This document shows positions 3,224-41,959 of a stretch of DNA of 44,840 nucleotides, piece after piece. A program made the translations under genes and the position numbers. Position 1 is the first letter of the stretch; each line of letters opens with the position of its first letter. Origin of the DNA: a virus; the UHGV virus genome UHGV-0716684; one strand, given 5' to 3'. The notes under the pieces were generated by a model, which was given only the letters and a program-made list of their open reading frames with translations, was not told the origin of the DNA and searched no databases.

Positions 3224-3252
3224 ACTATAATAGCGAACTATTCACATGTCAA
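3224..3252 (-). promoter_or_regulatory. sigma70-like promoter TTGACA-N17-TATAGT with GAATAG-N4-CTATT operator-like palindrome
   Basis: Reverse complement reads TTGACAtgtgaatagttcgctatTATAGT; near-identical to the element at 128-156; divergent from the HTH gene at 3317. Confidence 0.5.
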
Positions 3253-3316
3253 TGGGCTTTTCTAAAATAATTAATATGGTACTATTCACATATCAACTGA
3301 CTAAGGAGTAACTGAC

Positions 3317-3532
3317 ATGCAACCATCTGAACTAGGCATCCGTGTAGAGCAACGCCGTAAAGAACTCGGTATCTCCCAGCGCCGTCTGGCTGTTCTGGCC
3401 GGCGTTTCCCAGGGCGCGATTAACCAGCTTGCACTCGGGGTAACTCAGGACGTACGCCCGGCAACGCTGTTTAAACTGGCGGAAGTGCTGGAAGTAGACG
3501 CCAAGTGGCTGGCGCTAGGTGAAGGGGCGTAA
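3317..3532 (+). CDS. XRE/Cro-family helix-turn-helix transcriptional regulator
   Basis: 71 aa; HTH signature ISQRRLAVLAGVSQGAINQL; AGGAG Shine-Dalgarno; operator-like palindromes in its own upstream region. Confidence 0.8.
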   Translation: MQPSELGIRVEQRRKELGISQRRLAVLAGVSQGAINQLALGVTQDVRPATLFKLAEVLEVDAKWLALGEGA

Positions 3533-3548
3533 CGCCCCTTTCTTTTTA
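3522..3548 (+). terminator. rho-independent terminator (stem aggggcg / cgcccct, then T-run)
   Basis: GC hairpin whose loop is the TAA stop of the HTH gene, followed by tttcttttt. Confidence 0.5.
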
Positions 3549-5897: not shown

Positions 5898-5966
5898 TGT
5901 ATAATCCTTGTGCTTACTTTGATGATTTGTGCTTTGGCCCCGACGTTCTTGCGTTGGGGTTTCTTT

Positions 5967-6257
5967 TTACCGTTTAGCCAACCCTTCCAGCAAATTTTTA
6001 TACTCTTCAAAATATTCCTCGACCAAATCATCGCCGAAATAGAAGTCGATATACTCGAGATTATCTCTTACGTTAAGCGATGCCGACATGGTGCTTAGTT
6101 GGCGTAAGCTAATTAGCTTCATTTCTGTTTCTACGCAGAAAGGCCGGTAGGTATCAAGATGGCAAGAGATATTGAAGCATAAAGCGAACTCTCCTGCCAC
6201 GGAGTGAACCATATACACTTCGTTTTCTGCTTTATTGTGGAAAATTACGCCTTTCAT
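5967..6257 (-). CDS. hypothetical protein
   Basis: 96 aa ORF. Confidence 0.5.
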   Translation of the reverse strand: MKGVIFHNKAENEVYMVHSVAGEFALCFNISCHLDTYRPFCVETEMKLISLRQLSTMSASLNVRDNLEYIDFYFGDDLVEEYFEEYKNLLEGLAKR

Positions 6258-6436
6258 TTCACGTTCTCCTTAATCCATGCTTCGACTTTATTACGGTCAA
6301 ATGTTCCCGGTAAACGGCGGCCCATAACCTTAATACAGCAGTCAGGGAATTTGCCGCTGCGCAACCAGTTATTAATTGTCTGACGTGTCACCCCGATACG
6401 TTCAGCTACTTCATTCTGCGTCATATAATGCGACAT
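6254..6436 (-). CDS. AlpA/excisionase-like small HTH DNA-binding protein
   Basis: Start placed at internal ATG (MSHYMTQNEVAERIGVTRQTINNWLRSGKFP...) preceded by GGAG; ORF track extends to 6550. Confidence 0.6.
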   Translation of the reverse strand: MSHYMTQNEVAERIGVTRQTINNWLRSGKFPDCCIKVMGRRLPGTFDRNKVEAWIKENVK

Positions 6437-6467
6437 TTTTATATCTCCTGTTTGTTTGGTGAAACTG

Positions 6468-6496
6468 AGTATAGGATAGCGGGAATGTAAAAGCAA
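6468..6496 (-). promoter_or_regulatory. candidate leftward promoter TTGCTT-N17-TATACT
   Basis: Reverse complement of 6468-6496; upstream of the AlpA-like gene. Confidence 0.4.
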
Positions 6497-6533
6497 CCAA
6501 TCTCTGTAATATTTAATCTTTACAAAAATGTTA

Positions 6534-6563
6534 TTGAAAGTTCTTGACACATGTTTGTATAAT
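6534..6563 (+). promoter_or_regulatory. candidate rightward promoter TTGAAA-N18-TATAAT
   Basis: Consensus -10 TATAAT at 6558-6563 with TTGAAA 18 bp upstream. Confidence 0.45.
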
Positions 6564-6762
6564 GGTTTTGGGACTTGTATATATTACGGAGTTGACGAAC
6601 CCTCCCCGAGGGATTCGTCAACCCCTCCCAGACAGCTGAGATGCTTGCCTTGGGGTTTAAGGATAAGTGTATCTAAATCTCATTTAAAGAAGTAACCCGC
6701 TGAAATATCTACTGTTTCTTAATGTGCCGTAGATTCGCAACCGTAAAAATGTAACGATTATT

Positions 6763-6789
6763 GGGCAGGCTTAAGCCTGCCCTTTAGTT
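6763..6789 (+). terminator. terminator-like hairpin (gggcaggc-ttaa-gcctgccc, then tttagtt)
   Basis: Perfect 8 bp GC-rich stem followed by a T-rich tract, inside the noncoding switch region. Confidence 0.4.
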
Positions 6790-6854
6790 ACCAAGTAATA
6801 AGAATAAAGGCACAACCCTCCCCGAAGAATCACAACGGCAACGTAACTATTCTC

Positions 6855-6883
6855 TTGCACACCCCAACATAATAGGTTACTAT
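6855..6883 (+). promoter_or_regulatory. conserved phage promoter TTGCAC-N17-TACTAT with AATAG-N4-CTATT operator-like palindrome
   Basis: TTGCACaccccaacataataggtTACTATtcac; near-identical copies at 20383-20411 and 29690-29718 (minus strand). Confidence 0.5.
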
Positions 6884-6917
6884 TCACTTATCGAAACGAG
6901 ACATAAGGAATTTAGAA

Positions 6918-7136
6918 ATGAACAAAGCGACCGCAAGCGTAGTTTCCGCAATCAAAGAAGTTTACGGCATCGATATCTCAGAGCGCGTAATTATCGGGAA
7001 CAAGCGCAACTTCTTTACGTTCGACACCGACGGAATGGATGAAAATGATTTTGTTAACGTACAACGTTTCGCTAACGGTAAAGGACTTCGTAACGAGCCA
7101 GCGGGTTACAAGAAATTTGCTATCTACTTTAAATAA
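6918..7136 (+). CDS. hypothetical protein
   Basis: 72 aa ORF; AGGAA upstream. Confidence 0.5.
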   Translation: MNKATASVVSAIKEVYGIDISERVIIGNKRNFFTFDTDGMDENDFVNVQRFANGKGLRNEPAGYKKFAIYFK

Positions 7137-7145
7137 GACAGAGGA

Positions 7146-7340
7146 GTGATGGTTATGTTTAAGAAGGGTCAGTTGGTTAAAACAAAACGCGGCGGACAGT
7201 ACGTAATAGTTACCCAGAATGAGGATGAATATAGTACCGCTGTAGACGTATGGGGTCTTGTACGAAAGAAACATGGTTACGCTTTCAGAGATAATTTAAC
7301 ACTCATCGGCAACAATTTTAAATTCAAAGGGGCGAAGTGA
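7146..7340 (+). CDS. hypothetical protein
   Basis: 64 aa ORF; GGAG upstream. Confidence 0.5.
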   Translation: MMVMFKKGQLVKTKRGGQYVIVTQNEDEYSTAVDVWGLVRKKHGYAFRDNLTLIGNNFKFKGAK

Positions 7341-8463: not shown

Positions 8464-8492
8464 TTGCACACTAAGATAGAATAGGCTACTAT
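8464..8492 (+). promoter_or_regulatory. promoter TTGCAC-N17-TACTAT with GAATAG-N4-CTATT operator-like palindrome
   Basis: TTGCACactaagatagaataggcTACTATtcat upstream of gene at 8525. Confidence 0.5.
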
Positions 8493-20382: not shown

Positions 20383-20411
20383 ATAGTACCCTATTATATT
20401 GGTGTGTGCAA
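20383..20411 (-). promoter_or_regulatory. promoter TTGCAC-N17-TACTAT with GAATAG-N4-CTATT palindrome
   Basis: Reverse complement TTGCACacaccaatataatagggTACTATtc; upstream of the HNH gene. Confidence 0.5.
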
Positions 20412-20686: not shown

Positions 20687-20712
20687 GCCCCGCTTTAAGG
20701 CGGGGCTTTACT
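20687..20712 (+). terminator. terminator-like hairpin (gccccgc-tttaag-gcggggc, then tttacttat)
   Basis: GC stem followed by T-rich tract, located in the leader just upstream of the i-spanin RBS. Confidence 0.45.
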
Positions 20713-29689: not shown

Positions 29690-29718
29690 ATAGTACCCTA
29701 TTATATTGGGGTGTGCAA
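29690..29718 (-). promoter_or_regulatory. promoter TTGCAC-N17-TACTAT with GAATAG-N4-CTATT palindrome
   Basis: Reverse complement TTGCACaccccaatataatagggTACTATtcac; essentially identical to 6855-6883. Confidence 0.5.
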
Positions 29719-41674: not shown

Positions 41675-41959
41675 CTAACTATAATAGTTAGCTATTAGGT
41701 CGTCAACCTGTTTAAACGAACCTACGACAAAAACATTCGCGCCACGTTTACGCATCCGCTCGTGCTCTCGTAGTTGGTGCGGGTCTGGCTTCGTATTTTC
41801 GTCTTTCTTCACCTCTACGAACCAGATGATGCCACCGGGGAGAATTACCAGCAGGTCAGGAGCACCCGAACGTCCTTCGTAGGAGAGCTTACGAACGAGG
41901 CCCCCCAGGGCCTCGAATCGGTCTTTTGCGTATTTCTGAATCTTGCCTTCCGGGGTCAT
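41675..41959 (-). CDS. VRR-NUC domain nuclease
   Basis: 94 aa; PDLLVILPGGIIWFVEVKK core typical of VRR-NUC / PD-(D/E)XK. Confidence 0.65.
   Translation of the reverse strand: MTPEGKIQKYAKDRFEALGGLVRKLSYEGRSGAPDLLVILPGGIIWFVEVKKDENTKPDPHQLREHERMRKRGANVFVVGSFKQVDDLIANYYS
41677..41705 (-). promoter_or_regulatory. sigma70-like promoter TTGACG-N17-TATAGT with AATAG-N4-CTATT palindrome
   Basis: Reverse complement TTGACGacctaatagctaactatTATAGT; overlaps a 17-bp perfect palindrome ctaactataatagttag. Confidence 0.45.

Follow-up and report, generated by a model that had tools for sequence, protein, structure and literature searches.

Divergent promoters and a folded, probably terminated leader in a candidate early control region of a Kagunavirus genome

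The intergenic region and its flanking genes

The virus genome UHGV-0716684, a stretch of 44,840 nucleotides hereafter called the window (positions are counted from its first letter), harbors between positions 6437 and 6917 an intergenic region in which the direction of transcription changes. This region embeds two putative back-to-back sigma-70 promoters (P_L, leftward, and P_R, rightward), a non-coding leader that begins with one hairpin and ends with another resembling an intrinsic terminator (t_R), and a second putative promoter (P2) placed in front of the first rightward gene. We tentatively read it as the immediate-early control region of a virulent Kagunavirus relying on the host RNA polymerase.

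The whole window represents a complete Kagunavirus genome (subfamily Guernseyvirinae). Over the 1-kb stretch compared, Escherichia phage JSSK01 shares 99.8% identity with it, and hundreds of Kagunavirus and Jerseyvirus genomes of the same subfamily match the 1-kb stretch around the region. According to the annotation of phage Bas70, the genes on the left, all transcribed leftward, are those for a small helix-turn-helix (HTH) regulator, two small open reading frames (ORFs), the helicase-primase, and the remaining replication block; on the right, small genes transcribed rightward are followed by holin and endolysin, then by terminase (about 6.5 kb from the region), and finally by the structural genes. 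Since a leftward block lies on one side and a rightward block on the other, the region corresponds to the main switch in transcription direction of the genome. This agrees with a preliminary description of the same DNA, obtained from the letters alone, which had placed here the boundary between a leftward replication block and a rightward block; all the features that it listed are present in the sequence, at or close to the positions assigned to them.

The first leftward gene (6254-6436, minus strand) codes for a 60-aa DNA-binding protein of the HTH_17/excisionase family, a candidate regulator, which matches Pfam HTH_17 (E = 1.6e-8) and PHROG 66 ("excisionase and transcriptional regulator") and falls just under the cut-off for the TIGR01764 excisionase domain. 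In the RNA-seq analysis of phage vB_Eco_K1B4, 95% identical to the window here, an HTH-domain gene, presumed to correspond to 6254-6436, was classed as early (PMC12645636). The first rightward gene (6918-7136, plus strand) starts with an ATG at 6918, preceded by the ribosome-binding site AAGGA at 6905-6909, and codes for a protein of 72 aa assigned to PHROG 7673 ("internal head protein"). It is present in a few relatives only (JSSK01, Bas70, CR01, and D1), and elsewhere P2 mostly leads directly to the MFKKGQLVK gene (here 7146-7340); 6918-7136 looks like an inserted accessory gene heading the early operon.

The putative divergent promoters P_L and P_R

P_R (TTGAAA-N18-TATAAT, 6534-6563, plus strand), already recognized in the preliminary description, matches the sigma-70 consensus at 11 out of 12 positions, a value reached by only three sites in the 44.8-kb genome; its predicted transcription start is at about 6570. 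The same description had postulated divergent promoters without locating the leftward one, which we place at 6468-6496 on the minus strand (putative -35 TTGCTT at 6496-6491, N17, -10 TATACT at 6473-6468). P_L was not listed by the consensus scan because only 8 out of 12 of its positions match. The two putative promoters lie back-to-back, 37 bp apart. In that simple scan, promoter-like and terminator-like sites of the region showed no excess over shuffles; the case thus rests on the quality of the matches and on their conservation.

For the latter, the intergenic region was aligned with those of 27 relatives, to which 30 IMG/VR and 22 metagenome loci, retrieved through a conserved 19- to 21-mer, were added. 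A strong rightward sigma-70 promoter was found in the same relative place in 27/27 relatives and in 22/22 further metagenome loci (49/49), the sequences equivalent to P_R belonging to four or five different types. Moreover, the -10 of P_L (AGTATA on the plus strand) was invariant in all 27 aligned relatives, whose -35 is TTGATT.

The predicted leader RNA

Downstream of P_R, a non-coding stretch of about 220 nt ends at the terminator. The four ORFs overlapping the region (31-55 aa) have no PHROG family, and in the relatives indels of 1 nt and 10 nt run through the ORFs of the region. On these grounds, small proteins encoded in the leader were ruled out, and the earlier statement that about 200 nt carry no convincing ORF holds. 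The short ORFs annotated here differ among Bas70, Shashou, K53, and K-01. A 10-codon frame with an ATG at 6722 was also discarded, having no ribosome-binding site and being frame-shifted in relatives.

The 221-nt RNA from 6570 to 6790 has a predicted folding energy of -72.4 kcal/mol, compared to -51.6 +/- 4.5 for its shuffles (z = -4.6), and none of 200 shuffles equalled it (0/200). Its 5' hairpin (GTTGACGAACCCTC / GAGGG-A-TTCGTCAAC, closed by GG/CC; 6588-6625, plus strand) has a 14-bp stem (6591-6604 / 6608-6622) that contains a single bulge, and two further G-C pairs close it; it is the imperfect 13-bp hairpin that had previously been assigned to 6588-6620. A large stem-loop past the start is present in every leader type. 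In the ZCEC5-like and Jersey-like leader types, the place of the 5' hairpin is taken by a multi-tier hairpin of about 100 nt, whose apical part has been exchanged wholesale between subtypes. Its lower stems harbor compensatory changes, from C-G to U-A in 7 out of 14 sequences and from G-C to A-U in 3 out of 14, and another of their pairs appears as A-U, G-U, or G-C. Since G-U pairs correspond to A-C mismatches on the opposite strand, folding of the plus-strand RNA is favoured.

The product of P_R, a strong promoter, is probably a short non-coding RNA, tightly folded, whose synthesis ends at the terminator just before P2. Probing Rfam did not retrieve anything relevant at E up to 10 between 5500 and 8000, nor anything at E up to 1 in the loci of six relatives, and no match reached the gathering score in the whole window, where no tRNA or tmRNA genes were found either. 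A blastn search, which is blind to short seed matches, did not reveal any similarity between the region and host DNA across 5,426 E. coli genomes.

Two further observations concern sequence repeats. A C-rich word (AACCCTCCCCGA / CAACCCCTCC) occurs three times in the region (6598-6609, 6619-6628, and 6814-6825), and CCUUCC or CCUCC tracts are found in other leader types; such words could be anti-Shine-Dalgarno-like sequences or Rho-loading sites. In the Shashou-type relatives (L030, L031, and L040), the leader contains, upstream of the hairpin, a (CTCA)n microsatellite that varies in length.

The terminator-like hairpin

The hairpin t_R consists of GGGCAGGC-TTAA-GCCTGCCC followed by TTTAGTT (core 6763-6782, U-tail 6783-6789, plus strand). 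Its stem has 8 bp, 7 of which are G-C, and its energy is -16.3 kcal/mol; GTAAC (6751-6755) and GTTAC (6787-6791) might form an additional outer stem (6751-6791, plus strand). Allowing up to three mismatches, the 20-mer occurs once in the window, compared to 0 expected. The preliminary description was therefore right in reporting a terminator-like hairpin at 6763-6789, upstream of a second promoter. The hairpin was scored by combining ViennaRNA energies with a formula of the d'Aubenton-Carafa type. The resulting score d was +14.5 for 6763-6782, the highest among the six terminator-like hairpins scored in the genome, and +5.2 for its Jersey variant. Efficient termination at t_R is likely, as judged from these features, in this window.

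In the relatives, the t_R stem changes from C-G to U-A in Jersey-type sequences and carries a G-U pair in L017. A covariance comparison across related phages, which the preliminary description had suggested, thus revealed compensatory changes in both hairpins. In K1G-type phages, the inner stem is replaced by GGGTGGGC/GCCCACCC and the outer one by AGAGTAC/GTACTCT. Two candidates were rejected. An identical 20-nt hairpin in the IMG/VR contig L004 was attributed to chance, this being an unrelated phage in which the palindrome is longer; the helices GATTC/GAATC and GTGCC/GGCAC around the terminator are invariant or broken in relatives and hence unsupported.

Conserved boxes and modular organization

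The order of the elements (leftward promoter, rightward sigma-70 promoter, 220-330 nt without a conserved ORF, hairpin, box M2, and P2) was kept in every relative examined, and the layout, as judged from the aligned sequences, is conserved across the whole subfamily Guernseyvirinae. Within this common order the region is a mosaic: promoter and leader come in four or five unrelated types and the hairpin in three, likewise unrelated (type I; type II, or K1G-type; type III, or Shashou-type), and these are found in varied combinations, the leader modules recombining independently of the hairpin module. The window has its own leader type together with hairpin type I. Among type I sequences, E. coli and Salmonella phages hardly differ over 6716-6817; left of 6716, different types cannot be aligned.

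The box upstream of the terminator (6716-6762, plus strand) is nearly invariant in the Kagunavirus and Jerseyvirus relatives and is not coding, since an indel of 1 nt affects GTAAAAATG in relatives. The "A" box GTGCCGT (6724-6730, plus strand), which forms part of this stretch, is an inverted partial copy of the word ACGGCAAC discussed below; its TGCCGT (6725-6730) is shared by the three module types, and among the unique sequences listed only L045 and L046 depart from it, each by a single base. Downstream of the hairpin, an A-rich box (GTAATAAGAATAAAGGCAC, 6795-6813, plus strand) is invariant in type I relatives. Jerseyviruses have a second copy of it (AAGAATAAAAAGGCAC) that abuts the -35 of a P2-type promoter, which suggests a possible UP-element-like role. 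M2 (GAAGAATCACAACGGCAACGTAACTATTCTC, 6824-6854, plus strand) adjoins the -35 of P2 and is the most widely conserved piece of the region, being found in all three module types (98.7% over 79 nt in K1G). Matches to M2 in two sequences labelled as bacterial metagenome-assembled genomes (L036 and L037) were considered as due to chance, since their flanks differ.

Such a distribution bears on the possibility that the product of P_R acts in trans, as a stable, early small RNA of 220-270 nt like lambda 6S RNA, PreS, or StxS, with the conserved 3' part as the active sequence and the swapped 5' modules as, maybe, an adaptation to hosts or host defences. We regard this as a rather poor prospect. The anatomy would be appropriate (no ORF, a near-consensus promoter of its own, and a hairpin at either end, the 3' one being of the terminator type), the independent recombination of the leader modules is in keeping with it, and the 45 nt upstream of the terminator, predicted to be partly unpaired, are nearly invariant between E. 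coli and Salmonella phages. In addition, the 194-nt lambda 6S RNA, transcribed from PR' to tR', accumulates and is bound by Hfq with RNA partners (bioRxiv 10.1101/2024.10.31.621285). However, K1G-type and Shashou-type phages lack the conserved 3' part, no Rfam match was found, and the E. coli search retrieved nothing, although the method would not see short seeds. Targets among the translation-start regions of the phage itself were rejected, the duplex energies being no better than those of shuffled RNA. Furthermore, the U-tail is shorter than the tails typical of Hfq-dependent small RNAs.

P2 and the family of palindromic boxes

The second promoter, which had been predicted in front of the gene at 6918, was located at 6855-6883 on the plus strand (-35 TTGCAC at 6855-6860, N17, -10 TACTAT at 6878-6883), upstream of the AAGGA and the ATG already mentioned. 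Its -10 region is overlapped by a palindromic box, AATAG-N4-CTATT (6871-6884, plus strand), which is carried by neither P_R nor P_L. Probing the window with ATAATAGNNTACTATT and allowing up to two mismatches retrieved 10 sites, compared to 0.18 expected. Full TTGCAC-N17-TACTAT copies are four, each upstream of a gene start: P2 itself, 8464-8492 on the plus strand, and about 20383-20411 and about 29690-29718 on the minus strand. Three leftward promoters of the form TTGAC(A/G)-N17-TATAGT (128-156, 3224-3252, and 41678-41706, minus strand) harbor the same 20-bp box in the opposite orientation to transcription, and a further site of the family lies at 3271-3286 (plus strand). The box common to the family reads GTGAATAGT-N3-CTATTAT.

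The box is used in either orientation relative to transcription, as would suit a protein-binding site better than a promoter element specific to one polymerase. It looks like the operator of a dimeric phage regulator, and the sites presumably form a regulon with a common operator. Two candidates for this regulator can be named, the HTH_17 protein (6254-6436) and a Cro/DicA-like HTH protein of 71 aa (3317-3532, plus strand), whose gene is transcribed rightward inside the leftward replication block, has its own terminator (3521-3541), and is preceded by two copies of the box. At the P2-type promoter of 29718 (minus strand), too, a terminator precedes the promoter, at a distance of about 35 nt. 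A leftward promoter within the P2 palindrome (TCGATA-N17-TATGTT) was discarded, matching at 8/12 positions only.

The box has been reported in the genome papers of relatives as a "phage promoter" motif predicted by PHIRE (PMC9825357). Such promoters are described for the Kagunaviruses fBC-Eco01 and vB_EcoS-Golestan, and the consensus given in the fBC-Eco01 paper, tgAATAGTa-ccTATTat-T, is the reverse complement of the P2 box. The two interpretations differ in that the fBC-Eco01 paper credits the motif to a phage-encoded RNA polymerase, whereas none is annotated in the close relative Bas70, and we read it as a palindromic box inside sigma-70-type promoters, in both orientations.

A possible scenario for early transcription

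The following scenario can be depicted for this phage. On infection, two back-to-back, unregulated sigma-70 promoters would fire. P_L would lead to the small HTH regulator gene and then to the replication genes; P_R would lead to an untranslated leader of about 220 nt, protected by its 5' hairpin, whose synthesis would mostly stop at t_R. The rightward genes would be driven by the separately regulated, box-bearing P2, and t_R would behave as an attenuator or insulator, keeping the unregulated P_R from driving or occluding P2. The leftover short RNA, with a hairpin at each end, should be stable. Taken as a whole, this model (a terminated leader from P_R and a regulated P2) has, in our estimation, slightly less than an even chance of being correct. 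The firing of P_L, P_R, and P2, their start positions, the efficiency of termination, the box as an operator, and any role of the RNA itself are inferred from sequence features.

Several points weigh against this model. The score d was -21.6 for the whole interrupted stem of the K1G-type (type II) hairpin and -49.3 for the Shashou-type (type III) one. Since these hairpins have no canonical terminator score, termination may not be the conserved function, and it is doubtful as a universal function of the module. In the window itself, the U-tail TTTAGTT is short and interrupted; similar tails are found in other well-formed terminators of the genome, for example TTTACTT after GCCCCGC..GCGGGGC at 20687. 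Furthermore, the near-invariant 45 nt or so upstream of the hairpin, together with M2, exceed what a terminator needs and are not explained by the model, and M2, the best-conserved piece, sits beyond the terminator. The searchable literature did not reveal any transcription mapping for the Guernseyvirinae, and the RNA-seq paper on the close relative does not report intergenic coverage.

The lack of terminator scores in types II and III, in the presence of an architecture kept in every relative, would also be expected if P_R were the main early promoter of the rightward genes, and the 350 nt up to the gene at 6918 a long structured 5' untranslated region. In that case, 6763-6782 would do no more than weakly pause or attenuate transcription, the hairpins would contribute to the stability or processing of the RNA (for example 5'-end protection or RNase III cleavage), and the pairing of TGCCGT with ACGGCA would close a conserved RNA domain around the hairpin. 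This alternative appears unlikely. In its favour, the closing helix (TGCCGT 6725-6730 / ACGGCA 6835-6840) is predicted by RNAfold and RNAalifold in all three types, and, in the ZCEC5-like and Jersey-like leaders, the long imperfect hairpin of about 100 nt that follows the start presumably resembles an RNase III substrate. However, the letters of the helix are invariant, so that covariation speaks neither for nor against it, and it is broken without compensation in two relatives (L045 and L046). The alternative is also at odds with the window hairpin being the best of the six terminators scored, and with the separate, well-formed P2 between the leader and the gene.

The dispersed word ACGGCAAC and the question of an origin

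The core of M2 (6835-6842) reproduces ACGGCAAC exactly; no other word is as over-represented in the genome. ACGGCAAC / GTTGCCGT occurs 21 times in the window, compared to 2.35 in dinucleotide shuffles and 4.2 +/- 1.6 in codon shuffles, and the family (A)CAACGGCA(AC) heads the lists of over-represented words from 6-mers to 10-mers. The copies (for example those at 475, 942, 1195, 6835, 8359, 10306, 14026, 21166, 24091, and 41556) fall in all three reading frames, sense and antisense to genes, with an absolute strand bias of 16 to 5. In the Guernseyvirinae loci counted, the word reaches a density of 0.3-0.95 per kb, whereas 50 kb sampled from E. coli K-12 gave 0.12 per kb.

An inverted pair of the word thus lies within the early control region, as the "A" box and the core of M2. 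This could be either a coincidence of a very common word or the reason for the conservation of the boxes. Two further readings, valid jointly or singly, were considered, both with low probability. According to the first, the "A" box, hairpin, and M2 would represent a high-affinity site of a genome-wide DNA signal. It is based on the enrichment of ACGGCA(A/G)C, about 5- to 9-fold across the Guernseyvirinae, in all frames and with an absolute strand bias, and on the inverted ACGGCA(A/G)C pair that appears, in every relative, to bracket the hairpin of the early control region; it would point to a phage-specific polar sequence system, Chi-like or made up of sites for a DNA-binding protein, tied to early transcription or replication. 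According to the second, the P_R transcript would be a modular regulatory or anti-defence RNA, whose 5' domains may be swapped between phages.

A related question is whether 6716-6854 acts as DNA, the inverted ACGGCAAC pair flanking a palindrome being a protein-binding or nucleation site, or an origin beside the helicase-primase block. M2 and the "A" box are the only pieces shared by all three types, they are inverted copies of the most over-represented word, and M2 lies outside the terminated transcript. Moreover, the cumulative GC-skew has its minimum at about 6.0-6.5 kb, beside a stretch of 28-31% G+C (6450-6600), which corresponds to the promoter region, and GTAAC/GTTAC occurs five times within 196 bp, compared to about 0.4 expected (counted by hand, with a uniform base model). 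Conversely, no DnaA boxes, iterons, or other tandem repeats were found inside 6437-6917, the skew minimum coincides with the switch in transcription direction, and ACGGCA is so common (78 copies in the genome) that some are expected in any 480 bp. Furthermore, three unrelated sequences preserve the structure of the central hairpin, which argues for RNA rather than for a sequence-specific DNA site, and the G-U pairs of the 5' hairpin favour the plus-strand RNA. We consider a role as DNA highly improbable. The origin mentioned in the preliminary description finds a weak correspondence in the GC-skew minimum, which is confounded by gene orientation, and none in DnaA boxes or tandem repeats. A packaging-related role, also raised there, is likewise a weak candidate; the terminase genes are about 6.5 kb distant.

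The question of antitermination

The preliminary description compared the region with the PR'/tR' arrangement of lambda, where a short transcript is terminated unless an antiterminator acts. Applied to this phage, the P_R transcripts would stop at 6789 until an antiterminator, or a cis-acting put-like RNA, allowed read-through to the lysis and structural genes. The succession of a promoter, a leader of about 200 nt, a terminator, and a long co-directional block with lysis and terminase genes does correspond to the layout of the lambda late operon, and P_R, its leader of about 220 nt, and 6763-6789 provide the promoter, leader, and terminator of a Q-type module. The put RNAs of HK022 are located directly past the transcription start, as is the large stem-loop here. 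In addition, a -10-like stretch (TGTATATATT, 6576-6585, plus strand), in which TATATT is preceded by TG, can be read at about +7 to +16 of the P_R transcript and could, as a weak candidate, be a sigma-dependent pause element; in Q- and AlpA-type systems, -10-like elements cause the sigma-dependent pause needed for loading (PMC9371919).

However, inspection by eye did not reveal an evident counterpart of TGTATATATT in the other leader types, and no Q, N, or other antiterminator family was found by Pfam, PHROGs, and NCBIfam among about 28 neighbouring proteins. The gene adjacent to the module codes for the 60-aa HTH_17 protein rather than for a member of the Q family, nor does this protein correspond to an AlpA-type antiterminator. 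AlpA has eight helices, a ring-forming N-terminal part, and DNA-contact residues up to position 142 (PMC9371919), and a phmmer search at E up to 10 did not retrieve any AlpA chain in the PDB with the 60-aa protein; an AlpA-like antiterminator encoded beside its own terminator was therefore ruled out. Besides, the rightward block is interrupted by leftward genes, and the roughly ten box-bearing promoter-like sites offer a simpler route to temporal control. Since the hairpin does not score as a canonical terminator in two of the three sequence types, a strict switch of this kind is not conserved. We consider antitermination at 6789 very unlikely, and the lambda-like mechanism found no support, the small HTH protein being too short and the roughly 28 neighbouring proteins having revealed no antiterminator family. 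Of the preliminary interpretation, the divergent promoters and the terminated leader are upheld.

Comparison with known systems

The region is best read as a phage early control region with a terminated leader, of a kind already known, and its layout is nearest to lambda PR'/6S/tR' (StxS in Stx phages), with which it shares a constitutive sigma-70 promoter, a non-coding transcript of about 200 nt, an intrinsic terminator, and a lysis/packaging block downstream. Differently from PR'/tR', no Q-type gene was found nearby, the terminator is separated from the first gene by a second complete promoter, the module is located at a divergent early junction and not at the start of a late operon, and no sequence or Rfam similarity was found. 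The PL/PR control regions of lambdoid phages are similar in having back-to-back early promoters, a small HTH gene, and a terminator shortly into the rightward transcript. Unlike them, the phage studied here is virulent, neither an integrase nor a CI-type repressor being annotated; the repeated palindromic box is missing from P_R and P_L, no gene precedes the terminator, and there is no matching leftward terminator. The alpA-alpBCDE system of Pseudomonas aeruginosa (AlpA, 21Q-type) is comparable in that an HTH regulator gene adjoins the promoter-terminator and a -10-like element lies in the initially transcribed region; the difference is in the regulator, which in that system is the eight-helix, ring-forming AlpA and here an HTH_17 protein of 60 residues (PMC9371919 for AlpA).

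The bare observation is not new, since a host promoter, a terminator, and a "phage promoter" are already annotated for the homologous region in the record of fBC-Eco01. The Guernseyvirinae (Kagunavirus and Jerseyvirus) include hundreds of sequenced phages of E. coli and Salmonella, used in typing, therapy, and synthetic biology. For this subfamily, the region is the best candidate for the early switch, and it yields a structured RNA locus that is conserved but carries no annotation, besides about ten promoter-like sites that have one palindromic box in common. The published credit of this box to a phage RNA polymerase is corrected, no such polymerase being annotated in these phages. If the leader acts in trans, or if ACGGCAAC is functional, a new regulatory system would be available in a small, easily engineered genome; otherwise, the arrangement would be an ordinary early promoter-attenuator-promoter one.

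Additional modules and hairpins

In Salmonella phage Ent1 (L009, locus 619-1617), as well as in L008, the apparent 1-kb "intergenic" gap seen in some Jerseyvirus records contains a second module made up of box, hairpin, A-rich box, and promoter. The gap of L009 also embeds an unannotated homologue of the MFKKGQLVK gene, so that the annotation there is incomplete.

A leftward terminator matching t_R, in the style of lambda tL1/tR1, was sought and its candidate rejected: the sequence 5936-5961 on the leftward strand, followed by CCAAAGCAC. It forms a strong hairpin between two leftward genes; since its T-run is on the plus strand, it would stop rightward (antisense) transcription and not the leftward operon. 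In the record of fBC-Eco01, the same hairpin is annotated as a terminator on both strands.

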